A DNA stretch of 64,000 nt from Moorena producens (GCF_965240435.1 NZ_CBDEKO010000003.1); one strand, 5' to 3'; positions 3,449 through 50,035 are shown, counted from the stretch's first letter. The notes: generated by a model from the letters alone, not told the origin. Program-made: numbers and translations.

Positions 3449-3934
3449 GAAGAGAAAGTTGTACGTTTGTCCGCAACTTGGTATGAGTAATTGAAACTAT
3501 GCTCATGATTGTCTATATATAGTTGTGGAGCATAGTGACCTTAAACCTAAAGCTGGTGTAAAGTTAGAGCTGGTAAAGTTAAAGCTGGTCAGTATTTTGG
3601 GGTGCTTGTATTACCCCCAGACCAATTCCCGATTATCTATTACCTGATATATCTATTACCTGATAAGGGATATAAGAAGATATAATAATTAGCCAGCTGG
3701 AAATGATAATCCGATTATAGTAAGATAAATTTGTGGGTTATAGTAAGCTCGGTTAATCACATCGTTGACTCTAAAACTATCAATGAATTAAGCCAGTGGA
3801 ATTGAACCGAGTTATGGAGTATTTGATAGTGTTATGTTAGAAGTAAGCATAATTTAGATTCCAGCAATTAAAAAATTAAAGACAACTTAACTAGGAGTCC
3901 TGTTTCTAGTTTAAAGTGTAACGATTTTAAAAAT

Positions 3935-5737: not shown

Positions 5738-6799
5738 TTATGCATGAACAGCCATTAATTCATTTGCCTTTTTGGCAGTTTCAAAGAAGAATCTAACGTT
5801 ATCTTCTGGAGTGCCGGGTAAAACACCATGACCGAGATTTAAGATATGACCTTTGTGGCCAGCTTTGCGAATAGTATCGACAATGCGATCGCGAATAAAA
5901 GCTTGTGACCCAAAGAGCACTCCTGGGTCGATATTGCCCTGAACTTTCAGATCAGGACCCAATCTTTTTCTAGCTTCTGCCATGTCTACGGTCCAGTCTA
6001 CGCTGACCATATCAACCCCGGACTGTCCCATGCGTTCAAGCACTCCAGCGCTACCACTGATATAGAGAATGAAGGGGGTATCTGGGTGAGTGGCTTTAAC
6101 CTGCTGTACTACTCGCTGCTGATAGGGTAAGGCAAAGGTTTCGTAGTCTTGGGGACTCAGTTCACCTGCCCAAGAGTCAAACATTTGTATGACCTGAGCA
6201 CCGCTATTGATTTGGTAACGGACATAGATAGCGATCGCATCAGCTAGCTTACCCAAGAATTGGTGTAGCATAGCTGGTTGTGAGAAGGCCATTCCTTTAA
6301 TAATGGAGTAATTTTTAGAACTTTTACCCTCAATGGCATAAGCGCCCAAAGTCCAGGGAGCACCGACAAAACCTAGCACTGCTGCTTTATTGCCGACTTC
6401 GTCCCGTAGCGCCTTCAAAATTTCCCGGATAAACCCAAATTTCTCTAAATCCAACAGATGTAGCTGGTCAATTTGTTCCTGGGTACGAATCGGTTGGTTA
6501 ATGATTGGCCCTTTACTTTCGACAATATCAAAATCGATACCAATCCCTGGCAATGGAGTTAGAATATCAGAGAACAAAATCACTCCATCTGGTTTAAACG
6601 CTTTCCAGGGTTGTAGAGAAATCTCAATCGCTATGTCGGGATTTTCGGAGCGCTCGCGAAAACTCGGATACTTATCCCGTAAATCGCGATAAACCTTCAT
6701 ATAACGACCTGCCTGTCGCATCATCCACACAGGGGGGCGCTCTAACTCCTCACCACGAGCCGCCCTCAACAAATAAGGAACCTGGGTTGACCCAGCCAT
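5738..6799 (-). CDS. hemE: uroporphyrinogen decarboxylase
   Basis: 353 aa; [13 protein letters not shown]..., ...[16 protein letters not shown]... hallmark HemE motifs. Confidence 0.95.
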
Positions 6800-24293: not shown

Positions 24294-25439
24294 ATGTCCG
24301 AAAAAATTGTTAATTCCTGGAATGAATGGGATGAATTGGAAGAAATGGTGGTAGGAATTGCAGACTACGCTAGCTTTGAACCAAAAGAACCAGGGAATCA
24401 TCCGAAATTAAGAGATCAGAATTTAGCGGAAATCATTCCTTTCCCCAGTGGACCTAAAGACCCTAAAGTCCTTGAAAAAGCTAATGAAGAATTAAATGGA
24501 CTGGCTTATTTATTAAAAGACCACGATGTGATAGTAAGAAGACCAGAAAAATTTGATTTTACCAAATCCATAAAAACCCCTTACTTTGAAGTTGCTAATC
24601 AATACTGTGGAGTCTGTCCTCGGGATGTCATGATTACCTTTGGTAATGAAATTATGGAAGCAACTATGTCGAAGAGAGCTAGATTTTTTGAATACTTACC
24701 TTACCGGAAATTAGTTTATGAATATTGGAATAAAGACGACCATATGATTTGGAATGCTGCGCCTAAACCGACTATGCAGGATAGTATGTATCTAGAGACT
24801 TTCTGGGAGCTGTCTTTAGAAGAACGATTTAAGCGTATGCATGATTTTGAATTTTGTATTACACAAGATGAAGTAATTTTTGATGCGGCTGACTGTAGCA
24901 GATTAGGAAAGGATATATTAGTTCAGGAATCGATGACAACAAATAGAACAGGAATTCGGTGGTTAAAAAAGCACCTAGAACCAAGAGGATTTCGGGTTCA
25001 CCCTGTTCATTTTCCCCTTGATTTTTTCCCCTCCCACATTGACTGTACGTTTGTTCCTTTGCGACCAGGTCTTATTTTGACAAACCCTGAAAGACCTATA
25101 CGGGAAGAGGAGGAGAAGATTTTTAAAGACAATGGCTGGGAGTTGATCACAGTTCCTCAACCGACTTGCTCGAATGATGAAATGCCAATGTTTTGCCAGT
25201 CCAGTAAGTGGTTGTCAATGAATGTTCTGAGTATATCACCGACAAAGGTTATCTGTGAGGAAAGAGAAAAACCTCTCCAAGAATTGTTGGATAAACATGG
25301 ATTTGAGGTTTTTCCTTTACCCTTTAGACATGTCTTTGAATTTGGGGGGTCTTTTCATTGTGCAACTTGGGATATTCGCCGAAAAGGTGAGTGTGAAGAT
25401 TATTTTCCCAATTTAAATTATCAACCGATTTGTGGTTAA
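24294..25439 (+). CDS. amidinotransferase, glycine amidinotransferase (AGAT)-like
   Basis: 381 aa; closely parallels vertebrate AGAT along its length from memory: SWNEWDELEEMVVG (vs SYNEWDPLEEVIVG), ...ARFFEY..., ...SSKWLSMNVL..., C-terminal GGSFHCATWDIRRKG retaining the catalytic Cys of the FHC motif. Confidence 0.85.
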   Translation: MSEKIVNSWNEWDELEEMVVGIADYASFEPKEPGNHPKLRDQNLAEIIPFPSGPKDPKVLEKANEELNGLAYLLKDHDVIVRRPEKFDFTKSIKTPYFEVANQYCGVCPRDVMITFGNEIMEATMSKRARFFEYLPYRKLVYEYWNKDDHMIWNAAPKPTMQDSMYLETFWELSLEERFKRMHDFEFCITQDEVIFDAADCSRLGKDILVQESMTTNRTGIRWLKKHLEPRGFRVHPVHFPLDFFPSHIDCTFVPLRPGLILTNPERPIREEEEKIFKDNGWELITVPQPTCSNDEMPMFCQSSKWLSMNVLSISPTKVICEEREKPLQELLDKHGFEVFPLPFRHVFEFGGSFHCATWDIRRKGECEDYFPNLNYQPICG

Positions 25440-25487
25440 AAACTAACAATAGTAATTACAAGTTAAGAGGGTCAATAGGTCAAGACT

Positions 25488-26186
25488 ATGAATTTTGAAA
25501 GCGGTTATCAAGGGTTAAAATCAAGCGCGGATCCCCAACGATGGTCTGCTCAAAAAGAATTGCTAACGGATGAAAAATTGGTGATCGAAGGACATCCGGT
25601 TATGGAACGTTGGGAAACCCCTTATATGGGGGCTTTTGCGGCGTTAGTCACTCGCCATGGTGGTCGGATCTTAGAATGTGGCTTTGGCTTGGGAATATCG
25701 GCTCATGCTATTCAGTCTTATGCTCCAGAAGAACATGTGATTATAGAAGCCAATGACGATGTTTTTAAACGATTGATTGAGTTCCAAAACAGTGCAGTTA
25801 ATCAAGTAACCCCTATCTTGGGCTTAGCATGTGATGTCTTAGAATCATTTAATGATCAATCATTTGATGGTATTTTCTATGATACTTATCCTTTGAATGC
25901 AGATGAACAACACACCCACCAATTTCCATTTATCAAAAAGGTTTATCCCCTGCTTAAGAAGGGTGGAATTTTAAGCTATTGTAATTTGACGTCAACAGGA
26001 GTTCTCAAGAATAGATACGATTCCTGGGAAGCTCTTTTCAATGAAACTCAAGTTCCTTATCTTATTGAAGCAGGTGTTCCAGAAAACGATATTAAAGGTA
26101 TCATTATCTTTAAAGTTTCTCCACCTACCGATTGTTTATACTTTCAACACAAGACAGCTATGATTCCCATTATTGTCAAAGAGTAA
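25488..26186 (+). CDS. guanidinoacetate N-methyltransferase (GAMT)-like SAM-dependent methyltransferase
   Basis: 232 aa; HPVMERWETPYMGAFAA (vs KPVMERWETPYMHALAA in GAMT), ILECGFGLGI SAM-binding loop, DGIFYDTYPLNADEQHTHQFPFIK (vs [24 protein letters not shown]), ...YCNLTS..., ...ETQVPYLIEAG... Confidence 0.85.
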   Translation: MNFESGYQGLKSSADPQRWSAQKELLTDEKLVIEGHPVMERWETPYMGAFAALVTRHGGRILECGFGLGISAHAIQSYAPEEHVIIEANDDVFKRLIEFQNSAVNQVTPILGLACDVLESFNDQSFDGIFYDTYPLNADEQHTHQFPFIKKVYPLLKKGGILSYCNLTSTGVLKNRYDSWEALFNETQVPYLIEAGVPENDIKGIIIFKVSPPTDCLYFQHKTAMIPIIVKE

Positions 26187-28464: not shown

Positions 28465-29937
28465 ATGCCTATGAAAGTAGGAGCAACTAAAAAAATATCG
28501 ACTCAAATCGTCCTTGTCATCGGTATGACAAAGGTGGTTGAGACAGAGTTGCTGTCTACAATGAAAAAGTTGGGCATTGTCAGATCTGAGTCTTACAACA
28601 AACTGGGAAGCATCAACTACTGGAACCTTGACTGGAAAAAAGCTATTCCAGAAGTAAAAAGTTTTAGAACTCCAGATACTCTGGGATTACCTGCAAAATT
28701 AATGGACTGGACCGTTAATGACGTAGGTAAGGCTATTACAGCCCAACAAGCAGCTTGTAAAGATGCGGTTATTAAAAAGATTTACAAAAGATTTCCAGGA
28801 AAAGAAAATAAAAACAAACGGAAGGAATATGTCACGCAACTTAAGACTTCGGCATTCCTGGAGAATTCTTTACTGCACAGACTTGTTAGAAAAGAATTTC
28901 AAAAAGGTCATTCTTGGGTTAAGAATCAGATAGTTTACCAGCAAGTTGGCTACAAGTGTAAAAGACTTTCGCGGAACACTTGGCAACTGGAACTAGCTGG
29001 ATTAACAAAGGGAAAAAGGAATAAAATAATTGTCAAATCTAATCGAAAAATCAAAGGACAGATTAGATTAATCTATGATCAAATATTGCAAAGATTTGAA
29101 ATTCACTTTTTGGTAGACCATGGTACCGTAGAAGTTCCATCTGAACGTCGAAGTATCGGGGTGGACAAAGGTTACACCGAAGCTTTTTATGACTCAGAGG
29201 GTCAGGCTTACGGTACAGGACTTGGAAAAATAATCACCAAAAAATCCGATCGTATATGTGCTAAAAACCGCAATAGAGGAAAACTGTGGGCACTTCACAG
29301 AAAGCTAGAAAAGTTAGATCCAGCAAAGTCGGCTAGAATACTAAAAAATAACCTAAGTAGGAAAACCGAAAATCGCCGTTACAGACAAAATCAATCAGAA
29401 CTAACCGCAAAAATAGGAGCGGCTTCTAAATCTCTCTTTAACGGGGAGTCATTAAAAGTATTTGCAGAAGATTTAACTCAACCGATACGAAACAAACGCC
29501 GATCCAAGACCGTGTCCCGCAAACTTAATAGTTGGATGAAAGGAGTGATGCGGGACTCTTTGCAGAAATGGGCTAATTGGACTGGTTCGGTTGTCACAGA
29601 AGTTCAACCTAGTTACACGTCGCAAATTGACTCTAGAACCGGAACCCTGTTGGGTAAAAGGACTGGGGACAATTTTACCGGATTTGATGGGGTCGTGTTG
29701 CAGGCTGATTATAATGCTGCCAAAAATATTCTTGCTCGTGGGACTGATCACGAAATTACTCGGTACATGAACAAGAACGAGGTACAGGCAGTCTTGTTGC
29801 GTCGTACCGCGCGTTACTTGGAAGGGATGGGACTAAGTTTGGTTGATGGGGTTGAGCTAGGTTGGATTGATCCCAAACATAGCAAAACTAAGGCTTTCAA
29901 GCAACTCCTGGTCGAGATGCCAGGAGCGCCCAAATAG
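28465..29937 (+). CDS. tnpB: TnpB-like (IS200/IS605-family OrfB) RuvC-fold nuclease; solitary, no tnpA; zinc-finger apparently absent
   Basis: RuvC-I ...IGVDKGYT..., RuvC-II ...VFAEDLTQ..., RuvC-III ...QADYNAAKNI...; no CxxC pairs between RuvC-II and RuvC-III; N-terminal start uncertain (several in-frame Met). Confidence 0.65.
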   Translation: MPMKVGATKKISTQIVLVIGMTKVVETELLSTMKKLGIVRSESYNKLGSINYWNLDWKKAIPEVKSFRTPDTLGLPAKLMDWTVNDVGKAITAQQAACKDAVIKKIYKRFPGKENKNKRKEYVTQLKTSAFLENSLLHRLVRKEFQKGHSWVKNQIVYQQVGYKCKRLSRNTWQLELAGLTKGKRNKIIVKSNRKIKGQIRLIYDQILQRFEIHFLVDHGTVEVPSERRSIGVDKGYTEAFYDSEGQAYGTGLGKIITKKSDRICAKNRNRGKLWALHRKLEKLDPAKSARILKNNLSRKTENRRYRQNQSELTAKIGAASKSLFNGESLKVFAEDLTQPIRNKRRSKTVSRKLNSWMKGVMRDSLQKWANWTGSVVTEVQPSYTSQIDSRTGTLLGKRTGDNFTGFDGVVLQADYNAAKNILARGTDHEITRYMNKNEVQAVLLRRTARYLEGMGLSLVDGVELGWIDPKHSKTKAFKQLLVEMPGAPK

Positions 29938-38107: not shown

Positions 38108-38238
38108 GCTTGAATCAGTTATTGCGTTTATCGTAATTATGAGGTACAGTCAATTTTATTACCCCTACTCCCTATTCTCTACTCCCATTAACCCCAAGGG
38201 CGAGGTACCTTAGGGAATTGAGAAATGCTCTACACCTT

Positions 38239-40914
38239 ATGATTGGAATTGTGATTATCTCCCACAGTGCTAAGCTAGCCGCTGGGGTCAAAGAATTAGC
38301 CCAACAGATGGTTCAGACATCAATACCAATTGCGATCGCAGCGGGTATTGATGACCCAGAAAATCCCTTTGGTACGGATGTGCTGCAAGTCCAAGCTGCC
38401 ATTGAGTCGGTTTACTCCGATGCTGGGGTAGTGGTATTAATGGATTTAGGCAGTGCCGTGCTCAGTGCGGAAATGGCACTGGAGTTTCTGGATGAAGAGC
38501 AGAAACCCAATGTAAGATTGTGCGAAGCGCCATTAGTGGAAGGTGCGATCGCAGCCGTTGTCCAAGCTGCGGCTGGTGGTGATATCGACCAAGTGATTGC
38601 TGAAGCTAGATCAGCTTTAACCGCTAAAGCCTCTCAGTTATCAGTTGTTGATAGTAATGATAGTACTGATAGTACTGAGTTTGACCCGGTGGGTGGAACG
38701 GGCATCTTGCCCGTGGGTGGAACGGGCATCTTGCCCGTGGGTGGAACGGGCATCTTGCCCGTGGGTGGGACTGGCTGTTCCAACCCTGGCTACGAAGGGG
38801 AAAATGAGGGTGAGCCCGTCCCTAACGCACCACTAGCAACTACAACCAAAGAAATCCATCTTACTGTCGATAATCTACAGGGAATTCATGCTCGTCCTGC
38901 TGCCCAATTTGTTACTAAAGCTAATCGGTTTAACTGTGAAATTACGTTACAAAATATCACCAAAACTAGCAATATAGTTAATGGAAAAAGCATTAATAAT
39001 GTGATGCTTTTAGGTATCCAACAGGGAGATGAAATAGTCATCAAAGCAGTGGGAGAAGATGCCGAATTAGCGTTGATAGCGTTGCAGCAGCTAGTCGATA
39101 ACAATTTTGGCGAAACAGTAAATAAAGCAAAAGAAGACATCAACCAAAATTATAACCCTTCCAGTAACCAATCCCTTCACCCGTCATCCGTCACACTTGA
39201 TAGGTTAATTGGAATTCCTGCTTCTGCTGGTATTGCTATGGGAGCGGTTATTGTCTACCAACCCAAACGTCCAGAGATTATTGAAGAGCAAACAGATAAT
39301 CCTCAAGGAGAGTGGGAAACCCTACAACTTGCTATTAAAACAGCACAACAGCAACTTGAACACCTGATCAATACTGTTACTAACGATCAGGCAGATATTT
39401 TTCAGGCTCACTTGCTCTACTTAGAAGATCCAGCCCTAGTTAATAGAGCTTATCAGATTATAGTTGACCAGCATCTATGGGCAGGGGCGGCTTGGAAAAC
39501 TGTGATCGATGAAACGGTAGCAAATTACCAAACTCTGGAAGACTCCTACATGCAAGCTCGGGGAAATGATGTGATCGATGTCGGCTGGCGAGTGTTGCGA
39601 TTACTGACGAATAGGAAAGAAACCTGTCTAGATGTGACTGAGCCTGGTATTCTGGTTGCTGCTGATTTAACTCCCTCTGAGGTCGCGCAACTCAATCCGA
39701 TCCAAGTCCTAGGTATCTGTTGCGCTAGTGGCAGTGCTACAGCCCATAGTGCCCTGATCGCGAATATGCTCGGTATACCGATGATGGTTGGTGTTGGTCA
39801 GGATCTGTTGTCGTTGCCAGCTGGTACGGAGTTGGCACTGGATGGGACAACCGGTCAAATTTGGGTAGAGCCTTCTGAGGAACGGAAGCAAGAATTACAG
39901 CTACAGAGCAACAGTAAGGATGAATTACCTACAGAGGTAATTACTCAAGATGGACACAAAATTCCCTTGATGGCAAATGTTTTGGGAGAGGCTGATGCTA
40001 AATTGGCTCTCGATTGTGGTGCTCAAGGGATAGGTTTACTTAGGACTGAGTTTCTTTATCTGGAACGCTTAACTATTCCGATGGAAGAAGAGCAGTTGGC
40101 AACCTATCAAGCCATTGCGGAAATTATGGGTACCCATCCCTTAACGATTCGTACTTTAGATATTGGCGGTGACAAGCCCATTCCCTTCCTGAATCTAGCC
40201 TCTTCTGATGCTCCCTCTGATCGGCACACCCCAGAGCCTAACCCTTTCCTAGGATGGCGGGGAATTCGTCAGAGTTTGGATTGTCCAGAGATGCTCAAAA
40301 TCCAACTGCGGGCGATTCTACGAGGGAGTTATGGACACAACATTAAAGTGATGTTTCCTATGGTTTCTTCAGTACAAGAGGTACGGGCTGCTAAGGAAAT
40401 CCTAGCAGAGGCTCAAGCCGAGTTGCGCCAAGAAGGGTATAGTTTTAATGAACAGATGCCAGTGGGGATTATGGTAGAAGTCCCGGCAGCAGTAACCATG
40501 GCTGATCAGTTAGCGGCTGAAGTGGACTTTTTCAGCATTGGTACCAATGATTTGAGTCAATATGTGATGGCCGCTGACCGTACTAATCCCAAGGTGGCGA
40601 AGCTAGCTGATGCCCTTGAACCGGCTGTGCTACGGATGATTCAGCAAACGGTAACTGTTGCTCATCAAGCAGGGATTCCGGTTAGTGTGTGTGGTCAGTT
40701 GGCATCAAATCCAGTAGGGATACCGATTTTATTAGGGTTGGGTGTGGATGAGTTGAGTGTGAATCCACCTGCGATCGCTACTGTAATTTCAGTTATTACA
40801 CAGTTGAGTATCAACCAGGCCGAGATGCTTGCTGGTGAGGTGTTGCAGCTAGATTCGGCTCTTGCGGTTAGAGAGTATAGCGCTACGCGCAAGGCAATAG
40901 GCAATAGGCAATAG
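38239..40914 (+). CDS. dhaM: multidomain PTS-type phosphotransfer protein: EIIA(Man)-like DhaM domain + HPr domain + full Enzyme I (PEP-utilising) domain
   Basis: N-term MIGIVIISHSAKLAAG...VRLCEAPLVEGAIAAV (DhaM/EIIA-Man); HPr ...IHARPAAQFV...; EI ...GSATAHSALIANMLGIPMMVGV...LRTEFLYL...FFSIGTNDLSQY...CGQLASNP. Linker has in-frame repeat (VGGTGILP)x3-4 encoded by GGCAAGATGCCC-type repeat. Ends ...IGNRQ* inside AATAGGC array. ORF-track TTG start 38218; ATG at 38239 used. Confidence 0.85.
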   Translation: MIGIVIISHSAKLAAGVKELAQQMVQTSIPIAIAAGIDDPENPFGTDVLQVQAAIESVYSDAGVVVLMDLGSAVLSAEMALEFLDEEQKPNVRLCEAPLVEGAIAAVVQAAAGGDIDQVIAEARSALTAKASQLSVVDSNDSTDSTEFDPVGGTGILPVGGTGILPVGGTGILPVGGTGCSNPGYEGENEGEPVPNAPLATTTKEIHLTVDNLQGIHARPAAQFVTKANRFNCEITLQNITKTSNIVNGKSINNVMLLGIQQGDEIVIKAVGEDAELALIALQQLVDNNFGETVNKAKEDINQNYNPSSNQSLHPSSVTLDRLIGIPASAGIAMGAVIVYQPKRPEIIEEQTDNPQGEWETLQLAIKTAQQQLEHLINTVTNDQADIFQAHLLYLEDPALVNRAYQIIVDQHLWAGAAWKTVIDETVANYQTLEDSYMQARGNDVIDVGWRVLRLLTNRKETCLDVTEPGILVAADLTPSEVAQLNPIQVLGICCASGSATAHSALIANMLGIPMMVGVGQDLLSLPAGTELALDGTTGQIWVEPSEERKQELQLQSNSKDELPTEVITQDGHKIPLMANVLGEADAKLALDCGAQGIGLLRTEFLYLERLTIPMEEEQLATYQAIAEIMGTHPLTIRTLDIGGDKPIPFLNLASSDAPSDRHTPEPNPFLGWRGIRQSLDCPEMLKIQLRAILRGSYGHNIKVMFPMVSSVQEVRAAKEILAEAQAELRQEGYSFNEQMPVGIMVEVPAAVTMADQLAAEVDFFSIGTNDLSQYVMAADRTNPKVAKLADALEPAVLRMIQQTVTVAHQAGIPVSVCGQLASNPVGIPILLGLGVDELSVNPPAIATVISVITQLSINQAEMLAGEVLQLDSALAVREYSATRKAIGNRQ

Positions 40915-41375
40915 GCAATAGTTTACTAGAACAGCTTTTGCTGCTTTTATACATGTTAAACACCTTAATCGGTAGTGCTATATATTGTCAAGCAACTGGA
41001 CAGGTCGGTTTGAGTCTTGGCAGGAGTGATACAGCGCTACGGGCAAGGCAACAGGCAACAGGCAACAGGCAACAGGCAACAGGCAAAAAAAAAGAGAGTC
41101 GTTTTACTGACTCTCTCGATCATCAGGGTGCATCTTATATTTCAAATATACCTGAGCAAATGAGGGGTGTCACCCCTCACTGCAAAAATCAGCCAAATGG
41201 CTTAGTTTGTAATTTGGTACTGCAAAGCTGATATCCCTGACAAGACAGGGATTGAGATTGGAACAGTTATAGCGCTACGCGCAAGGCAAGAGGCAATAGG
41301 CAAGAGGCAAAAGTTAACTAAAACAGCTTAATCGGTAGTGCTATAAAATTAGGAACCATTATCAACCCCAGATCT

Positions 41376-42071
41376 ATGTTCGAGCAACAACCCCAAGCAC
41401 TACAGCAAAAGGTCAAACTTTTGGCATTGGAATCAATTCGCCAAGATAATCCATCTCAATGGTTTGACGTTTTATATGCCGAAGCTAATGGGGATTCGGG
41501 GCAAATACCTTGGGCGCGTAATACACCCCATCCCTATCTACAGGATTGGTTAGCGCGTAATACACCCCAAGGGTCGGGTCGCTCTGCCCTAGTGGTTGGT
41601 TGTGGGTTAGGGGATGATGCTGAAGCGTTGGCGCAGCAGGGTTTCCAAGTGACTGCCTTTGATATTTCCCCGACTGCGATCGCATGGTGCAAAAAACGAT
41701 TTCCCGATTCCCAGGTCAAGTACCAAGTGGCAGATTTATTCGCCTTAGATCCAGCATGGCATCACAAATTTGATTTTGTGTTTGAATGTCGTAACATCCA
41801 AGCCTTACCCCTCAAGCTCCGGTCAACTGTGATGAATGCGATCGCATCCTTACTCGCCCCAGGGGGAACCCTCTTAGTAATTACTCGATTTCGGGATAGC
41901 GACACTGAACCGGATGGTCCCCCTTGGCCGTTGTCAGATATAGAACTAGCTTACTTTCAGGAATTGGGCTTACAAGAAATCCATCGTGATACTATCCCAG
42001 AATCAGAGGATGACCCAATTCAACGGTTACGCATTGAATATAATCGCGAATATAGTCACCATGGTTCGTAA
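41376..42071 (+). CDS. class I SAM-dependent methyltransferase (TPMT-like)
   Basis: ...SALVVGCGLGDDAEALAQQGFQVTAFDISPTAI... motif I and post-I acidic residue. Confidence 0.7.
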   Translation: MFEQQPQALQQKVKLLALESIRQDNPSQWFDVLYAEANGDSGQIPWARNTPHPYLQDWLARNTPQGSGRSALVVGCGLGDDAEALAQQGFQVTAFDISPTAIAWCKKRFPDSQVKYQVADLFALDPAWHHKFDFVFECRNIQALPLKLRSTVMNAIASLLAPGGTLLVITRFRDSDTEPDGPPWPLSDIELAYFQELGLQEIHRDTIPESEDDPIQRLRIEYNREYSHHGS

Positions 42072-42426
42072 ACGCTTAATTATCGAAATGGGAATGGGAG
42101 TAGACCAACACGGTCAAGACCCAACCGTAGCAGCAGCAAGAGCTGTACGCAACGCTATTGCTCACAATGCCTTGCCTGGTGTTTGGGAAGTAGCTGGTTT
42201 AGAGCATCCCAATCAAATGATAGTTGAAGTTCAAGTCGCCGTGCCTTACCCAGAGCAAGTCCGAGAAGATGAAGTACTGGCTGTACTCCCATTTGGTCAG
42301 AAAACTCTATCCCTTGAGTCCGGTGGAATGGTGGTTCAAGGCAGAGCAATTCCAGAACTTAATGATAAAAATGATGAGATGCTGATTGCTGTTGCAGCGG
42401 TTACTGTTTTGGTCGATAGTGATTAG
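42061..42426 (+). CDS. small conserved protein, Lin0512-family-like (tentative)
   Basis: MVRKRLIIEMGMGVDQHGQDPTVAAARAV... recalls Lin0512-family N-terminus; overlaps methyltransferase stop by 11 nt; ORF-track start 41986 lies inside upstream gene. Confidence 0.45.
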   Translation: MVRKRLIIEMGMGVDQHGQDPTVAAARAVRNAIAHNALPGVWEVAGLEHPNQMIVEVQVAVPYPEQVREDEVLAVLPFGQKTLSLESGGMVVQGRAIPELNDKNDEMLIAVAAVTVLVDSD

Positions 42427-42590
42427 CTAAGCTATCAGCTATCAGCTATCAGCTATCAGTTATCAGCTATCAGTTATCAGCTATCAGTTATCAGCTATCA
42501 GCTATCAGCTATCAGCTATCAGCTATCAGCTATCAGCTATCAGCTATCAGCTATCAGCTATCAGCTATCAGCTATCAGCATACGGCGGTT
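42426..42590. repeat. CTATCAG heptamer array x~22 followed by CTGTTCG/CTGTTCC heptamers (42610-42680)
   Basis: Direct reading. Confidence 0.95.
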
Positions 42591-42744
42591 TGCATAACGA
42601 TCAGGTCAGGATTGTACCTGTTCGCTGTTCGCTGTTCGCTGTTCGCTGTTCTCTCTTCCCTGTTCCCTGTTCCCTAAAATCCAGAAATTTCTACCTAACT
42701 GAATTGCAAACCGCTGTATGCTTAAATTCATCAACCTTTGTCGA

Positions 42745-44397
42745 TCAAGTCACCAATAAAACTTCAATAAAGCGATTCCAGGTCATAGCTCGTCCATTGA
42801 TGCGACGATATAAAAAATTCACTTCCTTTACACTAAGGTGTGATTCACCTACACTGGCAAAAGCTAAATTCATTTCATCGATACTGATAACATCATCCTG
42901 GTTAGCATCAATTGGTATAAAATAAGTCATGAAGTCGTGATAGTTAGACATCAATCGTTGCTGACGCAATAACAATTCACCAAACTCAGCCAGATCAATT
43001 TCACCACTGCCATCAATATCCAGACAACGAAACAAATAATCCAATTCCTGTTGAGAGATACCTCGTTTGACTTGCCGCAGGTGTTCTGCGAGCTCGTTAA
43101 CCGAAAGGGTGTTACTGAAATCGGTATCAATGGCATTAAAGAGATATTCGATATTTCTTTTGGTTGAGGTGGAGGCAGACTCAAATAAATATAGGTGGGG
43201 TGTACCTGCAATTGCCTCTTGCATCTGACGGCGAAAGGTGGTAAGGATATCTTTGGCAACCAGGTAACGGTGGTAATGTTCTTCTGGGCTAGCGATCGCA
43301 TGTAGGGGAACCGGGACTAATGACGGCAGTGTCTGCTGCAAAAAGCGGAAACCTCCGATTGTGACCAAACAGAAGGGTAAGGTCAGGATGGGCAAGTTAA
43401 CTAGGGTGAAGATGTGGCTTAAAATGCCCCCCAGGATAGTTGAAAAAAAAGCCATAAAAATACCAGCAAGCAGGCTGCGCAGGTTGGGGGCAAAAAATAC
43501 TCCAGAGATGGCCATTGCTGTCAAGATGGCGTTGTAACTGCACAATCCAGCCGAGATGGTGTCAGGACGGAAACCTGTGATCACCGCTGCCAGGGTACCG
43601 GATATTCCCCCCAATAATCCCACAGCTGCCCCAATCGGTGTACACCAGGCAACTGCGGCCAAGACCAGCACCCCAGCCACAAACTTGTCCATTAAAAACA
43701 CCTGCCCAAACCCAATCGGCACCGAGGTGGCAAATTGCGACCAATTGATCGGTTCCAACATAGGTGGGGGAGTGGGCGTGGGCCCCAAGCTATAAACTGC
43801 TTGAGGCATCGAGAGGGCAATCACCAGAAATAACAGCGTTGCCGCAATAAAGGGCAAGGTTAGGGGGGGAAATTTCAGCTTGCTGGCAAACCAGACTCCG
43901 ACGGTCTTGATCAACAGGGTGGTAAGAGTAGAAAAGATGATAGCCCCCATGAGCCAGAGGGGATTCCAGTTACCATTCCCGGATGCCCCAAAGGTAGCAA
44001 GTGCTGCTCCGACTAAAATCCCGTTATAGCCAAAAATACCGTTGCGAAGACTATCGCGATTAAGATTAAGCAAGATGGCAGTTACGGTTGAAGCCACCAG
44101 ACCCACTACACTCATCACCCCTACCCAAGGTGACTGAATAAACAGTGCTATCAGAATCAATAAGCCACTGAGGGGGTTGTTGACAAAGATCACCTGGCCA
44201 ATGCCACGCAAGTTGTAATTCAAAAAATCCCACAGAGGTTGATCGCCTAAGCGTTGATTGAGAGATGGCAATGTGCCTGCACCAGGTAGCAACCAGGGAA
44301 ATAGCTTAGTCCTATGGGGTTTGAAAAGTACTAGGTTGGCAATTAGTTCATGGAGCGGTGAGGGTTCAGGGGTAGCCGGGGGCATAGAAGATTTCAT
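42745..44397 (-). CDS. urea transporter (UT family) membrane domain fused to a C-terminal EF-hand calcium-binding domain
   Basis: UT signatures ...GIGQVIFVNNPLSGLLILIALFIQSPW... and ...LRNGIFGYNGILVGAALA...; C-terminal ~150 aa with EF-hand loops DTDFSNTLSVNEL, DIDGSGEIDLAEF, DANQDDVISIDEM. Confidence 0.8.
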   Translation of the reverse strand: MKSSMPPATPEPSPLHELIANLVLFKPHRTKLFPWLLPGAGTLPSLNQRLGDQPLWDFLNYNLRGIGQVIFVNNPLSGLLILIALFIQSPWVGVMSVVGLVASTVTAILLNLNRDSLRNGIFGYNGILVGAALATFGASGNGNWNPLWLMGAIIFSTLTTLLIKTVGVWFASKLKFPPLTLPFIAATLLFLVIALSMPQAVYSLGPTPTPPPMLEPINWSQFATSVPIGFGQVFLMDKFVAGVLVLAAVAWCTPIGAAVGLLGGISGTLAAVITGFRPDTISAGLCSYNAILTAMAISGVFFAPNLRSLLAGIFMAFFSTILGGILSHIFTLVNLPILTLPFCLVTIGGFRFLQQTLPSLVPVPLHAIASPEEHYHRYLVAKDILTTFRRQMQEAIAGTPHLYLFESASTSTKRNIEYLFNAIDTDFSNTLSVNELAEHLRQVKRGISQQELDYLFRCLDIDGSGEIDLAEFGELLLRQQRLMSNYHDFMTYFIPIDANQDDVISIDEMNLAFASVGESHLSVKEVNFLYRRINGRAMTWNRFIEVLLVT

Positions 44398-44558
44398 CTA
44401 TAGTTGAACAATATAGAGGTTTTCAATATTAGGCTAAAAACCTCTATATTCATTAGACCTCTTCCAAAAGTATTTTTTTGATACTGTTTTCGTCAATTAT
44501 TGTTACTGTTTTCTGTCTGCTGTCTCCTATCTCCTAACAACTGCCGCGAAGTCTATTC

Positions 44559-45578
44559 TTATGCTTTCCCTGTTACTTCTAGGCGATTGGCAATGGCATC
44601 CACTACGGTTTCAAAAATGCCCAAGGAGTTTTCCACCATGGTGTTGAGGGTATCGAGCAGGGGATTAATTTCACAGATTTCCCAACAACACACCCGTGGA
44701 TCTTTAACCAAGGTTTCGTTGAGCAGACAGGCTTCCTTGACAAAAATCCCATTTGGAGCTGGGGTTCCCGTTCCCATACAAATTGTGGAGTCCATACTGT
44801 CCACGTCAAAGGTAACGTAAATCAGATCCACCCCTTCTAGCTTCTCTAAACACCGTTGGGCAACGACATCCGCACCCAAGGTACGAACTTGCTCAGTAGT
44901 CATATTTAGGATCTGGTGTGTTTCAATCAAATGGTCTTCTGCCTCTTCCGTATCTCGTACCGCAACATACACCAGATCCTCAATGCTAAAATTATCGCCA
45001 TCTGCCAGCCCCAATCTTTGGCACAGGTTCCACAGTTCTAAGGTGTCTGAGTCAAGATCATTGATTTGCTTGGCCAGATTATCAGTAGCAGTCGCCATCG
45101 CCAGAGGCATCCCATGCATATTTCCCGATGGAGTCGTATAGGGGGAGTGAATATCGGCATGGGCATCAATCCAAACCACTCCCAGGCGATGATTCGGAAA
45201 GGCTTTTTTGATTCCGGCGATTGTCCCTGCTGCCGTTGAATGATCCCCACCGATTACCACTGGAAACAGCCCCTCCTGTAGGGTTTGGGCGACTACATCG
45301 GTGGTGCGGCTCAGCACCTGATATAGCTTCTCAATATACTTGGCGTAATGATGTTTGTGTCCCAGAGCATCTGCCGAATTTTCGGTTTGTACTCGTAAAC
45401 TATCCAGACTCAACACACCATTCTCGGCATGCATCCGTGCCGCTTGTTTTTGGATAGCAGCTTCTCTCAAGGCAGCAGTTCCCATGGATTGACCGCGCGT
45501 TCCTGCTCCTAATTCCGAATCAACTTCAATCAGCGCAATGGAGGAAAACTTTGCGACTTTTTGGTACTGAATTGACAC
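44559..45578 (-). CDS. arginase/agmatinase-family ureohydrolase
   Basis: Mn-binding motifs VVIGGDHSTAAG, WIDAHADIHSP, TFDVDSMD. Confidence 0.85.
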   Translation of the reverse strand: MSIQYQKVAKFSSIALIEVDSELGAGTRGQSMGTAALREAAIQKQAARMHAENGVLSLDSLRVQTENSADALGHKHHYAKYIEKLYQVLSRTTDVVAQTLQEGLFPVVIGGDHSTAAGTIAGIKKAFPNHRLGVVWIDAHADIHSPYTTPSGNMHGMPLAMATATDNLAKQINDLDSDTLELWNLCQRLGLADGDNFSIEDLVYVAVRDTEEAEDHLIETHQILNMTTEQVRTLGADVVAQRCLEKLEGVDLIYVTFDVDSMDSTICMGTGTPAPNGIFVKEACLLNETLVKDPRVCCWEICEINPLLDTLNTMVENSLGIFETVVDAIANRLEVTGKA

Positions 45579-45964
45579 TCCCCGCCCTGGAAGGACGGGG
45601 ATTCTTGATTCAACGAGGTGACTTGTTTAACCAGGCCGGAGCCAGGAAAAATAGAGGTCTCCTCTCCACAAGCGTATTTGGTCTATGACCCAGGTTTCGG
45701 TGTGCCCCACCGTACCTTGTCTTGATGAAGTCACTCATGGGGGTTCCCCCCATGAGCGCGCTGCATCGCTTTTTTTATATATAGATAGATACTTTTTTAA
45801 TCTAATTTTTTTCATAGACGTTTAAGTCGTTAGACCAAATTACGCAATATGCATCTGATACATATTTTTTACGTTGCCTACTTATTTTTAGATAGTATTT
45901 ATCTAGCTTTTTAGTTTATTGTTTATAATTATCTTATAACACGCTCTGTGAAAACTGTCAAGTT

Positions 45965-46516
45965 TTAGCTGAAAAAGAAAGCCGTCCTATAAGGACGGGG
46001 CTTTAAACCCAATTTTTCCGGTAAAATATTTTTGAAACTGCGTAAGCCTGCGATCGAAATCTTCAGACCCGATTCATAAGTTTGAGTGGCAATAAACTCT
46101 TCAAAATCAATTTCGCCATCTCTATTTAAATCAGCTTTTCTCACCAAGGCAGCAATTTCTGAATCAGTTACGGTGGTGTTGAAGCAACGGATAATCTGGG
46201 TGAACTCGTCAATCGATAATTTGCCACTACCATCAACATCAATCAGTTCAAACACCTGTCGTAGATCAGCCCTAATATCGAGATCTTGGCGGTTTACCAT
46301 CCACTCCATAAAGGCATCCCGTGTCACAACATCATCTTTGTTGAGCAGATTGAAAAGATTGGTTCGGTCTTGAAGGGAAATGCCTTGTCCCAGAATCTCT
46401 AGAGCATCGATGATCTCCTGACGACTGATGAATCCATCACCATTGGCATCAAACAACTGGAAGACCTGGTCAAATTCTGCATATCGTTGAGATGACATTG
46501 GTTTGGTTATGGTCAT
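45965..46516 (-). CDS. calmodulin-like EF-hand protein (>=3 canonical EF loops)
   Basis: DANGDGFISRQEI, DVDGSGKLSIDEF, DLNRDGEIDFEEF 12-residue Ca-binding loops. Confidence 0.8.
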   Translation of the reverse strand: MTITKPMSSQRYAEFDQVFQLFDANGDGFISRQEIIDALEILGQGISLQDRTNLFNLLNKDDVVTRDAFMEWMVNRQDLDIRADLRQVFELIDVDGSGKLSIDEFTQIIRCFNTTVTDSEIAALVRKADLNRDGEIDFEEFIATQTYESGLKISIAGLRSFKNILPEKLGLKPRPYRTAFFFS

Positions 46517-46822
46517 GGTTGAATCTCCTCATCTGTTACCCTATTGTGGAAAAATCGGATCGCGATTATACTACCATTTGACAACGAATGTCCCTCAAAT
46601 CAGCAGATGAGCATAACTGAAATGCTAGCCCTATCGATTATTGAAGATTCTGCTTATAGCCGCACAGTGCGAGAGTGGGACTGAAGATAAAGCAGAATGG
46701 ACAGAGTTGGAAATAACTGACCCCCCTTTTCAGAAAAGCGATCGCATTCTGGCATTCGTGAAATAGCATGGGTGGTACTCCCCTGTCGGAACTGTACATT
46801 GTGTCCATCGCCAAATTAGCCC

Positions 46823-47033
46823 AAATCTGTAGTTTCAACAAAAGGGACGTGGAAATCGTGCGTAAGTCTAATTGGTCCTTATATTACGTCTCTAGAAATG
46901 CAAGGCTGCTCGATTACCCTACTCAAAATGAACGATGAGCTAATTAAATTCTGGGATTGCACCAGTCAAGACACCAGCCCTGCGTTGGGGATTATGATTA
47001 GATATGATATCTGGGAGCATCAGTATAGCGGTT
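46823..47033 (+). pseudogene. dhaK: 3' remnant of dhaK (dihydroxyacetone kinase DHA-binding subunit), roughly 55-60 C-terminal aa only
   Basis: Translation ...VSLIGPYITSLEMQGCSITLLKMNDELIKFWDCTSQDTSPALG... parallels E. coli DhaK C-terminus ...[39 protein letters not shown]...; in-frame stop immediately upstream and no DhaK-like sequence 5' of it. Confidence 0.6.
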
Positions 47034-47299
47034 TCTAGCGTAATGAGGTACACAGGATTTTTTCCCTCTTGCCTCTTGCCTCTTGCCTTCCCCTCCTGGG
47101 AGGGGTTAGGGGTGGGTTACTCTTGCCTCTTGCCTTCCCCTCCTGGGCAGGGGTTAGGGGTGGGTTACTCTTGCCTCTTCTCTGTTCCCATGTTCCCTAA
47201 AATCCCAAAATTGTGTACCTCACCCAATTGAAAACTGCTATCATTGTAAAGCTTAGCTAATTGCTAATTGCTAATTGTTACCCTGAGGCCCTGACCCCC

Positions 47300-47595
47300 T
47301 GACCCACTCTGCCACTGTCACGAACTCGCCGCTAAGTCCTTCGGACTATAGCGGGAGCTTGATTGCTCTGTCGTGACCAGACTAAGTTCTTAGAGAACTA
47401 CGTTATTCAGCTCATGACACCTACAAATATCGTGCCAGTTTGCTAGCAACTGTCGTACAGCATATTAAACAAAGGCGTAACGAGTTATTTCCAGTGAGTT
47501 GTACCTAACAAGGTCATGAATAACATTGTCGTTCGCGCAAGCTTTGTGCTTCGCACAGGCTAACTCTACCCGTTTATCGGAGTGTTCGTGCTGTA
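47300..47595 (+). ncRNA. candidate omegaRNA scaffold region upstream of the iscB pseudogene
   Basis: Position (5' of iscB) as established for IscB systems; hairpin CCGCTAAGTCCttcgGACTATAGCGG; not validated by structure search. Confidence 0.3.
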
Positions 47596-48950
47596 ATGCG
47601 AGTTTTCGTGTCTAGATCAAAACAAACAACCTCTAGATCCTTGTCATCCAGCGAGAGCTAGAGAACTGCTTAAGAAAGGGAGGGCTAAAGTTTTCAAACG
47701 CTACCCATTCACTATCATCATGCCAGATCGGTGCTATTGATGATTCTGTTACTCATTGTCACACAGAATTAAGATAGACCCCGGCTCAAAAACAACAGGT
47801 GTTGCTATTGAATTTTGAGCAAACTGGACGGAATTACCAATGCTTTAGAAATCAACCATCGAGGTCAACAGATTAAGAATGCTCTAGAATCTCGACGAGC
47901 ATTAAGACGTGGTAGACGGAATCGCAAAACCCGATATCGTCAGCCAAGATTTCTAAACTCGAAGGCACGCCCTGACGGTTGGTTGCCACCATCATTAATG
48001 AGTCGAGATTTCAATGTTGAGACTTGGCGTTAGGCGGCTGATCAAGTTGTGTCCTATGAACTGCAATATCTCAAGAGTTAGTCCGATTTGATACTCAGAA
48101 ATTGCAGAATCCAGAAGTATCAGGAGTTGAGTATCATGGACGGGGAACTATTTGGGTATCGAGCCTTGAAAGAGTCCTTTACCCCTCCTGCTAAATGGTA
48201 GTAAAAATTGTGTTTACTGTGGTGCAGATAATGTGCCGTTAGAAGTGGAACACATTGGGATTGCCAAGTCTAAAGGAGGCAGTAACAGAGTTAGTAATTT
48301 AACAACTTGCTTGTCGTTGTTGCACATCAGCAGATAAAGGTAATGACTCGATAGAGAAGTTTCTGAAGAAAAAGCCGGAGATTCTCAAACGAATCTTAGC
48401 AAAGGCAAAAGCTGCCTTTGAAGCCGACACAGCGGTTGTCAATGCAACCCGTTGGGAATTATTCAGATAGATTGCAGAATTGACAGAGTTTGCCTGTTGA
48501 GACTGGTTCCGGTGGCTTGACTAGAATTTAATCGAAAGCATTAAAGGTATTCGAGAAAACCCACTGGGCTGGTACTGCCGCTTGTGTTGGCAAGTCAACT
48601 CCTACAAAACTGTTGCTGATCGGGAATAAAACCAACTGCTGTATAACTGCTAAAGGTCACTGGAATTCGTGCGTACGTCTGATTCGTCCTGACAAGTTTG
48701 GATTTCTAGAAATGCACACGCACCAAAAGCTAAGTTTTTCCATGGCTTCCAAACGGGTGATATTGATGAAAGCGAACATCAAGCATTCTGGAAAGTACGC
48801 AGGACAATACACCAGGCCGAATCGCTATCCGGTATCGTCCAAGCTTTGTGTATGCAATTTGCTGAAGGAAAGTTTGATGTACACCCCAAATATTTGCAAA
48901 CAATTTTTAGGGCCGACGGCTATGAATATCAAGTCTCTTAATGCGGTTTC
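47596..48950 (+). pseudogene. iscB: frameshifted IscB (OMEGA-type RuvC/HNH nuclease of IS200/IS605-superfamily ISC elements)
   Basis: Pieces in different frames: ATG-RVFV (47596), PLMP region ...PLDPCHPARARELLKKGRAKVFKRYPFTIIMPDRCY*, RuvC-I ...IDPGSKTTGVAIEF*, arginine-rich bridge helix ...RRALRRGRRNRKTRYRQPRF... (ORF 47815..48033), HNH ...[34 protein letters not shown]..., C-terminal ...FHGFQTGDI...FRADGYEYQVS*. At least four frameshifts/stops. Confidence 0.7.
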
Positions 48951-49041
48951 GCTGTCGCTCAATTTGCTCATTGTTGGCGGGAATTCCTCTGACCCGCTAA
49001 AACTAACGTTTATAACGGGAGAGGAATTCCCGCATTTTGAG

Positions 49042-49668
49042 ATGGTAACTAAACATCAAATTCTACAGTGGTTACAAGCAGTCGCTACTACACTTGAACA
49101 AAACAAGGACTATCTAACCGAACTTGATGCTGCTATTGGTGATGCTGACCACGGTATCAATATGAATCGTGGCTTTCAAAAGGTGATCACTCAGCTTCCT
49201 AAAGTCGCAGATAAAGACATTGGCAGTATTCTCAAAACCGTCAGCATGACTCTAATTTCCACTGTGGGAGGTGCCAGTGGACCACTTTATGGCACCCTGT
49301 TCTTGCGCTCAAGTGCAGCAGTAGCAGGAAAGCAAGAACTGACAAAAGAGGATATGGTCAAACTATTCCAAGCAGCAGTGGAGGGAGTCGTCCAGCGAGG
49401 CAAAGCCAACTTGGGAGATAAGACCATGTTAGATGCTCTATCACCCGCAGCCAATGCTTTCGCACAAGCTGTAGATCAAGGAGACAGTATGCTAGCAGCC
49501 TTGCAACAGGCCGTCAACGCCGCAGAAGAAGGGATGAAAAATACTATTCCGTTGGTGGCCAAGAAGGGACGAGCCAGTTATTTAGGGGAGCGCAGTGCTG
49601 GACATCAAGACCCTGGTGCTACTTCAGCCTATTTGATTTTCCAGACACTGCTAGAAACTATTGCGTAA
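49042..49668 (+). CDS. dhaL: dihydroxyacetone kinase ADP-binding subunit DhaL
   Basis: MVTKHQILQWLQAVATTLEQNKDYLTELDAAIGDADHGINMNRGF... canonical DhaL N-terminus; ORF-track start 48613 extends artefactually through the iscB remnant; ATG 49042 preceded by GGGAGAGG. Confidence 0.85.
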   Translation: MVTKHQILQWLQAVATTLEQNKDYLTELDAAIGDADHGINMNRGFQKVITQLPKVADKDIGSILKTVSMTLISTVGGASGPLYGTLFLRSSAAVAGKQELTKEDMVKLFQAAVEGVVQRGKANLGDKTMLDALSPAANAFAQAVDQGDSMLAALQQAVNAAEEGMKNTIPLVAKKGRASYLGERSAGHQDPGATSAYLIFQTLLETIA

Positions 49669-49674
49669 TACAGG

Positions 49675-50035
49675 GAGTAGGGAGTAGGGAGTAGGGAGTA
49701 GGGAGTAGGGAGGAGGGAAAATTGACTGTACCTCAGTAAGTGAGATAGGGGAATAGGGATATAGTTAACTTTTTACTAGGGAGTAGGGACTTAGGGAATA
49801 GGGTTAAGAAAATCGCGTCTTTACCTCATAAGTAGGAGTCAACGCTCTAGTCAACCTTCAACCTTAGTAACTTATTCATACCTTCAAGCGATCTCATCTT
49901 GTTGAAGGTCAACCGTAACCCCTCAACCTTCAACCCTCAACCCTCAACCTTCAACCTTCAACCTTCAACCTTCAACCTTCAACCTTCAAATTTAAACTTT
50001 TAACCTTCAACCTTCAACCCTCCCTCAACCCTCAA
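49675..50035. repeat. GGGAGTA heptamer array then CCTTCAA/CCCTCAA heptamer arrays
   Basis: Direct reading. Confidence 0.9.

Follow-up and report, generated by a model that had tools for sequence, protein, structure and literature searches.

A split EF-hand::arginase gene and a urea channel::EF-hand gene in Moorena producens: a damaged copy of a conserved gene pair with a candidate role in calcium-controlled urea metabolism

The sequence analysed here, called the window, is a stretch of 64,000 nucleotides (nt) from Moorena producens (GCF_965240435.1, NZ_CBDEKO010000003.1), and the locus under study occupies positions 42,745–46,516 on its minus strand. Three open reading frames (ORFs) of 550, 339 and 183 aa lie there, just as the original prediction from the sequence had placed them. 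It read them as a channel of the urea transporter (UT) family with an EF-hand tail, an arginase-family ureohydrolase and a calmodulin-like protein, encoded by three consecutive genes. The 339-aa ORF was called at 44559–45578 (−) with a GTG start and the 183-aa ORF at 45965–46516 (−). The alignments described below point instead to two genes, an EF-hand::arginase gene followed by a UT::EF-hand gene, of which the first is split by a 449-nt insertion. The features are listed in Table 1.

The two EF-hand fusion proteins

The 550-aa protein matched the Pfam family UT (PF03253) over aa 61–347 with an E-value of 5e-76 (256 bits against a cutoff of 25), and EF-hand_7 over aa 415–474 with an E-value of 4e-12. 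On the NCBIfam model TIGR03441, which describes the Yut equivalog, it scored 170 bits, under the cutoff of 274.6. By these profile scores the protein is a member of the UT family and no Yut equivalog. An AlphaFold2 model was built from 106 sequences (the window protein and 105 homologues, which also gave the conservation counts), with a predicted local distance difference test score (pLDDT) of 84.9 and a predicted template-modelling score (pTM) of 0.83. The model matched the ten-helix, two-repeat channel fold of UTs, and in Foldseek the target TM-score was 0.88–0.91 against human, bovine and zebrafish UTs (UT-B, UT-A) and dvUT. Both threonines of the selectivity filter are present; their replacement by valine abolishes the passage of urea, water and NH3 (PMC12171576). 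Every key residue of the channel ORF is intact in the window.

The EF tail of the channel model matched calmodulin, troponin C and the calmodulin-like domain of calcium-dependent protein kinases (CDPKs) in Foldseek, and the isolated tail matched calmodulins at an E-value of about 1e-12 in phmmer. Profile, sequence and fold thus agree on the EF identity of the tail, and the predicted fusion of a UT channel to EF-hands, with three canonical 12-residue loops in the tail, was borne out. A helix at aa 371–396 is placed N-terminal of the EF module. Its residues P371, E372 and H374 are invariant in the 106 sequences, and E373, R377, A381, F388 and R389 are nearly so. This helix may be the junction with the EF module or its target. 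Since UT proteins have both termini inside the cell, the EF module is expected in the cytoplasm, together with the signal-less arginase.

The 339-aa ORF matched the Pfam family Arginase (PF00491) with an E-value of 1.8e-51 (175.7 bits against a cutoff of 22), in agreement with the predicted ureohydrolase family. The 183-aa ORF matched EF-hand_7 with an E-value of 2e-24 and contained three EF-hand_1 stretches. A search of a collection of 5.8 billion proteins showed that homologues of the arginase are mostly 495–530 aa long and carry EF-hand domains N-terminal of the arginase; most of the shorter, arginase-only homologues lie on short contigs. The nearest homologue, P0121, is a protein of 502 aa from Moorena sp. 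SIOASIH that is named arginase and is 96% identical. In an alignment to four fusions, the window ORFs tile P0121 end to end, the EF ORF covering residues 1–165 and the arginase ORF residues 166–502. The break falls between SFKKIL and LQYQKV, within the linker helix. As judged by this alignment, a single ancestral gene for a protein of about 500 aa gave rise to both the 183-aa ORF and the arginase ORF, its two parts. The EF loops of the predicted calmodulin-like protein are real; its standing as an independent gene was not upheld, and the ORF is a gene fragment.

The EF loops of the arginase N-domain at aa 23–34, 93–104 and 129–140 are canonical and its second EF-hand is degenerate. Among 94 EF-arginase fusions, the residues D23, E34, D93, G98, E104, D129 and E140 are invariant. 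Both EF modules, the channel tail and the arginase N-domain, have three canonical loops and one degenerate EF-hand and score above the Pfam cutoffs. A canonical loop has 12 residues within paired helix-loop-helix motifs, with Asp at position 1, Asp/Asn at 3, Asp/Ser/Asn at 5 and Glu at 12. The two modules are related to each other (33% identity over 60 aa, E-value 2e-9), and their loop positions 1 and 12 show little or no variation in sequences that are just 35–50% identical. The native fusion of the arginase itself to four EF-hands makes the link to calcium stronger than was first proposed.

The motifs GGDHS, DAHAD and DVDSMD are present in the enzyme. In the 94 fusions the six ligands of the binuclear Mn centre (H276, D301, H303, D305, D421 and D423 in P0121) are invariant, and so are H318 and E466, the proton-shuttle histidine and the guanidinium-binding glutamate. 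The Mn ligands of rat arginase are His101, Asp124, His126, Asp128, Asp232 and Asp234, and its arginine-recognition residues are Asn130, Thr135, Ser137, Asn139, His141 and Glu277. The loop TTPSGNMHG, which contacts the alpha-carboxylate of the substrate and holds the equivalents of Thr135, Ser137, Asn139 and His141, is almost fully invariant in the fusions, and the equivalent of Glu277 is kept. The best sequence matches of the enzyme in the PDB are Thermus and Bacillus arginases (E-values 1e-43 to 1e-37). The AlphaFold2 model of P0121 (pLDDT 79.4, pTM 0.82) had arginases as all of its top 50 fold matches in Foldseek. One contact departs from arginases, the Asn130 position being an invariant His in the family. 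On these residues and folds, L-arginine is the likely substrate.

Conservation of the gene pair across lineages

The UT plus EF-hand architecture was found in more than 110 clusters at 90% identity, so homologues elsewhere do carry the EF tail. At 50% identity, about 25 of the 185 representatives that matched the UT at an E-value of 1e-30 or below match through the tail (1.84 billion representatives searched). The sources include Microcoleus, Allocoleopsis, Nodularia, Nostoc, Moorena, Coleofasciculus, Leptolyngbya, Pleurocapsa, Crinalium, Oscillatoria, Okeania and Symploca. Members of the family are annotated merely as 'urea transporter' or 'arginase'.

Gene order was taken from exact-protein look-ups and from a metagenome scan in which an alignment of 15 UT-EF proteins was the query and 78 loci were obtained; a single-protein scan of genome contigs gave one locus. 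In Moorena sp. SIOASIH (locus L008) and in L009 and L010, all of them long genomic contigs with different neighbours, the UT-EF gene is directly preceded by the EF-arginase gene on its own strand. The same order is seen in L089, a contig of 65% GC where the pair is accompanied by an F420H2-dependent reductase, a luciferase-like oxidoreductase and TauD, neighbours that do not look cyanobacterial. Among EF-tailed channel loci with enough upstream sequence, tblastn found an arginase directly upstream in about 29 of 61, with gaps of 2–150 nt; such gaps are seen in L008, L009, L010 and L089 and in over 20 metagenome loci whose neighbours are unrelated. The arginase carried the EF N-domain in 21 of the 23 readable loci, and both exceptions were truncated arginase matches. 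No arginase neighbour was found for any of six channels without an EF tail, a small sample. The pair occurs in filamentous cyanobacteria, in a freshwater clade of high GC and in the high-GC contig L089. Taken from this synteny, the ancestral unit is two genes arranged head to tail, EF-hand::arginase and then UT::EF-hand. The marks of an operon, namely a shared strand and a short spacer conserved despite different flanks, are found across these lineages; in the window they are lost, the spacer being 161 nt long and the upstream gene split.

A rough neighbour-joining tree of channel domains placed the EF-tailed channels in one group apart from plain UTs, with arginase-linked channels on both deep branches of that group. 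The pore has threonine at both filter positions in all 26 arginase-linked channels and in 4 of the 29 other EF-tailed ones (Fisher p 1e-11, shared ancestry ignored). That the Thr/Thr pore is always kept beside the arginase speaks for urea conduction by the arginase-linked channels. Two derived UT-EF subgroups, as read from pores and neighbours, have lost the arginase and changed the pore. In the Microcoleus-type subfamily the channel gene is followed by a 5'-nucleotidase with its own C-terminal EF-hands and then by inosine-uridine nucleoside hydrolases. The channels of this subfamily have Gly or Ala at the first pore threonine and Ser, Ala or Gly at the second, which suggests that they carry a different solute. 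In the freshwater high-GC subfamily, alanine dehydrogenase is encoded upstream and the pore has Thr and Gln (Asn in one case).

Two further observations concern these relatives. In the Microcoleus contig L006, a NOX5-like protein with EF-hand and ferric-reductase/FAD/NAD domains is encoded at 3743–5755, 4 kb upstream of the UT-EF gene. A distant UT-EF protein of 943 aa (P0263, 32% identity) has an N-terminal extension of 380 residues. It was tried as a Rosetta-stone fusion of arginase and channel; the extension has no Pfam match and gave that idea no support.

Table 1. Features of the locus and of related loci. Positions are counted from the first letter of the window unless a contig is named.
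Feature	Position	Strand	Evidence
UT::EF-hand gene, full length, 550 aa	42745..44397	−	ORF, Pfam, AlphaFold2, Foldseek, alignment with 105 homologues
UT channel domain, about aa 45–360; pore motifs PPLTLPF (aa 177–183) and PILTLPF (aa 336–342)	43318..44265	−	Pfam, Foldseek, phmmer
Thr180 codon, first selectivity-filter (Sm-site) threonine	43858..43860	−	phmmer: opposite UT-A2 Thr176 = human UT-B Thr177
Thr339 codon, second selectivity-filter threonine	43381..43383	−	phmmer: opposite UT-A2 Thr338 = human UT-B Thr339
Juxtamembrane helix, aa 371–396, PEEHYHRYLVAKDILTTFRRQMQEAI; candidate junction/target helix for the EF module	43210..43287	−	AlphaFold2 helix and conservation
Calmodulin-like module of four EF-hands, aa 410–550; three loops canonical, fourth degenerate	42748..43170	−	Pfam, phmmer, Foldseek
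UT-tail EF loop 1, DTDFSNTLSVNE, aa 424–435	43093..43128	−	D424 invariant; S432 and E435 kept in at least 90%
UT-tail EF loop 2, DIDGSGEIDLAE, aa 460–471	42985..43020	−	D460 invariant; D462, D468 and E471 kept in at least 90%
UT-tail EF loop 3, DANQDDVISIDE, aa 497–508	42874..42909	−	D497 and E508 kept in at least 90%
Arginase–UT spacer, expanded, 161 nt	44398..44558	−	Alignment, promoter scan; intact L008 has about 15 nt
3' part of the split EF-hand::arginase gene: catalytic domain, P0121 residues 166–502	44559..45571	−	Pfam, TIGR01229, PDB search, P0121 alignment
Putative non-autonomous IS200/IS605-like insertion, 449 nt	45572..46020	−	BLAST against relatives, junctions, hairpins
5' part of the split gene: N-terminal four-EF-hand domain, aa 1–165	46021..46516	−	Pfam; alignment with P0121, P0122, P0134 and P0191
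Leftover native upstream sequence, 64 nt	46517..46580	−	BLAST block structure
Recurring insertion pieces	L006 9819–9881; L006 8592–8637; L007 935–997		BLAST similarity to the 449-nt insertion
UT-EF and 5'-nucleotidase::EF-hand subfamily	L006 11676–15542; L034 6681–8378; 12 further loci		
Alanine dehydrogenase-linked UT-EF subfamily	L043, L046, L049–L051, L059, L060, L062, L064, L067, L087		

The insertion, further damage and neighbouring elements

BLAST against relatives showed that window positions 45572–46020 are missing from L001, a metagenome-assembled genome (MAG) of Moorena sp. SIO3I8, and from L008; in L001 the EF part continues directly into the arginase part. The uninterrupted sequence is GATTTTAC joined to TTCAGTACC. 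The window has TATTTTAC, then the insertion from CGGAAAAATT (starting CGGAAA) to GGGGAGTGTCAA (ending GTGTCAA), and then TTCAGTACC. At the junctions TTTTAC adjoins CGGAAA and GTGTCAA adjoins TTCAG; the insertion lies 3' of TTAC with zero target duplication. Hairpins with the common core CCCCGTCC lie 17–20 nt from its left end and 7 nt from its right end. They fold at −8.8 and −9.7 kcal/mol (z-scores −1.6 and −2.7), which is modest support. The insertion holds no transposase, and no second copy was found in the 64-kb window, where there are merely matches of 23–31 nt; it is called non-autonomous for these two reasons. With moderate confidence, judging from its ends and junctions, we class it as IS200/IS605-like.

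Two other origins of the insertion were considered and dropped. A deletion derivative of the TnpB element that occupies the same spot in L002, another close relative, was rejected because no sequence similarity to that element was found. A self-splicing intron or IStron was rejected on an Rfam scan of 40000–50000, which found no group I or group II intron, and HEARO only elsewhere. In Microcoleus contigs, pieces of the insertion (64 nt at 83% and 46 nt at 89% identity) are found again a short way upstream of the UT-EF gene, and they may belong to a widespread small cyanobacterial repeat.

The insertion supplies the EF ORF with its stop codon and last 18 residues, and the arginase ORF with its GTG 'start' (45578–45576). 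A terminator-like hairpin (45998–45982) lies directly 3' of the stop of the EF ORF. The GTG stands one base past a GC-rich hairpin, where ribosome-binding spacing is not usable, so translation of the arginase half is doubtful. Gene 1 is probably inactive in the window, or at least uncoupled from its sensor. These features also bear on a reading in which the three ORFs are separate, co-transcribed genes and the channel, the arginase or both are targets in trans of a free calmodulin-like protein. The three ORFs do share one strand, and the EF fragment retains all its Ca2+ loops and has a low ratio of nonsynonymous to synonymous substitution (dN/dS, 0.16–0.27); a detached sensor could in principle fold. 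We consider such trans action very improbable, given that the EF ORF is the 5' part of a split gene closed by a terminator-like hairpin and that the arginase start is derived from the insertion and badly placed. In addition, no free-standing EF gene was found at this locus in the sampled relatives, except for a 174-aa remnant in L002 that is cut by the TnpB gene. The predicted co-transcription of the three ORFs is doubtful as well, in view of the hairpin, the short upstream remnant and the growth of the spacer before the channel gene.

The arginase–UT spacer has grown by about 145 nt relative to L008. It holds a palindrome with a 13-bp stem (about 44410–44451), part of a 46-nt palindromic element common to L001, and about 100 nt that are unique to the window (44454–44554). 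A promoter scan placed a promoter-like site at 44496–44469 within it. On the other side of the pair, about 1 kb past 46580 is deleted relative to L001 and L002, comprising the 5' two-thirds of dhaK (Dak1) and the divergent intergenic region, and a second promoter-like site (46594–46565) straddles the deletion junction. The dihydroxyacetone kinase locus itself is damaged at 46580–47026 and 48613–49668, and dhaL (Dak2) persists in a longer artefactual ORF.

The close relatives are also damaged. In L001, the EF-arginase has a nonsense codon at position 120 and the channel gene is broken after residue 284. In L002, a TnpB gene stands where the arginase should be. The sole intact cassette among the close relatives is that of L008. 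The lesions in the window, L001 and L002 arose independently. Against the relatives, at a dS of about 0.1, dN/dS was 0.16–0.27 for the gene halves, 0.37–0.52 for the channel gene and 0.26–0.44 for flanking genes. Since these ratios show no decay at that divergence, the lesions are taken to be recent. Relaxed selection as proof of pseudogenisation was dropped, because dN/dS is not clearly raised and the divergence is too low to decide.

It is quite possible that the whole module in the window is a decaying relic without present function; its conservation elsewhere would then be real but uninformative for this genome. The split gene, the promoter region reduced to 64 nt, the enlarged spacer and the independent lesions in L001 and L002 all fit such a relic. 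The channel ORF fits it poorly, being full length with its key residues intact, and so does the promoter-like site in the inserted spacer; dN/dS (0.17–0.52) is not clearly over that of the flanking genes.

Several other elements lie in the window. The prediction of an AGAT/GAMT pair 18 kb away held for the first member. A 381-aa ORF at 24294–26186 (+) is a relative of L-arginine:glycine amidinotransferase (human AGAT 1jdx, E-value 1.5e-78) and also of SxtG. The adjoining 232-aa ORF has a weak methyltransferase match (E-value 0.003–0.05), which leaves the name GAMT unproven. This 3.2-kb pair may itself be an insertion, because the acetyl-CoA synthetase and short-chain dehydrogenase genes that flank it adjoin in L002. 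At 47317–48033 (+), an Rfam match to HEARO RNA (the IscB-associated omega RNA) scored 75 bits with an E-value of 4e-14, just below the gathering score. The short ORF after it (47815–48033) has an arginine-rich stretch typical of IscB, with no full-length IscB. Together these look like a decayed IscB element, which lies within a 2-kb insertion (47026–49046) missing from L001 and L002. A 490-aa ORF at 28465–29937 (+) encodes a TnpB-family RNA-guided endonuclease (NF040570, 75 bits). The TnpB ORF, the IscB remnant and the 449-nt element show that the region is heavily colonised by elements of the IS200/IS605 type. A DhaM-HPr-PtsI fusion gene at 38218–40914 (+) has an interdomain tandem repeat, (GGTGILPV)x3–4; its relatives of 854–948 aa vary here.

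Proposed calcium control and comparison with known systems

On balance, and with moderate confidence, we favour a reading of the locus as the damaged form of a conserved cassette through which Ca2+ jointly controls the conversion of arginine to urea and the flux of urea. The regulation of arginase and channel by Ca2+ is inferred from their sequences. The product of gene 1 is a cytosolic arginase with an N-terminal calmodulin-like domain of four EF-hands, and that of gene 2, directly downstream, is a UT-type urea channel with a C-terminal, presumably cytoplasmic calmodulin-like module of four EF-hands. A rise in cytosolic Ca2+ would load both sensor domains, and the loaded sensors would switch on the hydrolysis of arginine to ornithine and urea and open the channel simultaneously. 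The conserved amphipathic helices beside each EF module would be released, as in CDPKs, NOX5 and the Ca2+-regulated mitochondrial carriers; by analogy with these proteins, helix release is the probable mechanism. The new urea would equilibrate over the membrane, most plausibly by efflux. Efflux or equilibration is the more economical direction, since urea is made inside the cell by the partner enzyme and cannot be concentrated by a passive channel; uptake of urea to feed urease is less economical. In cyanobacteria, Ca2+ signals are tied to nitrogen metabolism (PMC4915528, PMC7065334).

A wider version of this scheme can be offered only tentatively. The cassette would be a self-contained output of Ca2+ signalling, in which a transient frees autoinhibitory helices and gives a pulse of arginine-derived urea together with its release. 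The fusion would have arisen once in the UT family and later diversified to altered pores with other enzymes, including the EF-tagged 5'-nucleotidase. If this is true, the urea pulse might hand nitrogen to neighbouring cells or partners, or shed an osmolyte.

Several observations weigh against joint control of arginine hydrolysis and urea flux by Ca2+. The cassette is broken in three of the four close relatives (the window, L001 and L002), which makes it dispensable in this lineage at the least. An arginase neighbour is missing beside about half of the UT-EF genes, and in L090, a MAG labelled Polyangium, an EF-arginase has no channel neighbour. Within 350 nt upstream of 22 EF-arginase genes, an NtcA box (GTAN8TAC) was found in 3, about the number expected by chance, and in the window there is none. 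With 19 of the 22 loci lacking the box, nitrogen control at the promoter is unsupported. (A GTA-N9-TAC sequence in the arginase–UT spacer was rejected as an NtcA site for its wrong spacing.) The TIGR01229 model (rocF_arginase) gave 217.1 bits for the window half and 216.5 bits for P0121, under its cutoff of 227.6, and the Asn130 position is an invariant His (in DIHSP) throughout the EF-arginase fusions. EF-hands may also be purely structural. The last three of these points lead to two further alternatives, one for the enzyme and one for the EF modules.

The enzyme might hydrolyse another guanidino compound, such as agmatine, a guanidino acid or peptide-bound arginine, and still free urea. Besides the sub-cutoff score and the loss of a carboxylate-binding Asn, about 35 inserted residues modelled with low confidence (P0121 aa 187–222) would fit a different substrate, and the cyanobacterial arginase-family protein Sll1077 has been reassigned as a guanidine hydrolase (PMC8390497). 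We regard another substrate as quite unlikely. On the NCBIfam arginase model the enzyme scores three times as high (217 bits) as on the formimidoylglutamase and agmatinase models (about 70 bits). True arginases make up its best sequence matches in the PDB and all of its top 50 fold matches, and the carboxylate loop and the Glu277 equivalent are conserved.

As to the EF modules, they could be assembly or stability modules, constitutively Ca2+-bound, that dock an arginase trimer on a channel trimer so that urea is passed to the pore as in a metabolon. Arginases and UT channels are both three-fold oligomers, the same 3+1 EF module sits on both partners, and the pairing of a second UT-EF subfamily with a 5'-nucleotidase::EF-hand protein fits a common docking tag. 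Many UT-EF genes, though, have no EF-tagged neighbour. In a cytosol of submicromolar Ca2+, canonical loops that have Glu at position 12 are typical of sensors, and we judge such an assembly or stability role unlikely.

The effectors of bacterial Ca2+ signalling are largely unknown. The cassette offers two assayable activities, urea production and urea flux, each with a built-in sensor. Because both proteins are assayable, bear sensors and are encoded together, direct control of bacterial metabolism by Ca2+ can be tested with standard biochemical methods. With the cassette, cyanobacterial nitrogen metabolism gains a true arginase as well as a passive channel for urea. For annotation, the locus shows how a split by a mobile element can make one gene resemble a two-gene 'module'. 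A description of either fusion was not found in full-text searches on EF-hands with urea transporters or arginase, nor in the papers reached by a search on cyanobacterial urea transport and arginase, in a library that lacks most subscription journals. A genomic survey of urea transport in 308 cyanobacteria treated only UrtABCDE, named Yut for Yersinia alone, and did not mention arginase or the UT channel; according to a 2026 paper on the cyanobacterial protein CSE, just two Ca2+-binding proteins have been analysed in Nostoc. The component families are known, and the pairing of two EF-hand fusions is conserved but uncharacterised.

The channel shares with other UT/SLC14 channels (dvUT, Yersinia Yut, mammalian UT-A and UT-B) the Pfam family, the ten-helix fold, the paired LPxxTxPF motifs and both filter threonines. 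It differs from them in about 170 extra C-terminal residues, which form the four-EF-hand module and are left uncovered by the solved urea transporters among the PDB matches retrieved (query TM-score at most 0.59). Its gene also adjoins an arginase gene and not urease. The enzyme resembles the arginases RocF and those of Bacillus caldovelox, Thermus and rat (arginase I) in its six Mn ligands, proton-shuttle His, guanidinium Glu, most alpha-carboxylate contacts and fold. Unlike these, it has a native N-terminal four-EF-hand domain of about 165 aa with a linker helix, as well as the His for Asn130, the insertion and the sub-cutoff score noted above.

A cis-fused four-EF-hand module beside a conserved amphipathic helix is also found in plant and apicomplexan CDPKs, NOX5/RBOH, the mitochondrial ATP-Mg/Pi and aspartate-glutamate carriers and plant TPC1. 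The present pair has other effectors, an arginase and a urea channel, belongs to a bacterial host and brings two fusions together in one operon; release of inhibition is borrowed from that group by analogy. Helicobacter pylori, with RocF, the proton-gated UreI and urease, likewise pairs arginase-derived urea with a gated urea channel. However, UreI is unrelated to UT and is gated by protons and not Ca2+, the genes are not so paired, and the purpose is acid resistance. CSE and CcbP are Ca2+-binding proteins of filamentous cyanobacteria that are likewise tied to nitrogen metabolism (PMC7065334, PMC13578307). CSE is a free two-EF-hand buffer or sensor without a fused effector, whereas in the cassette the sensor is built into the effectors.

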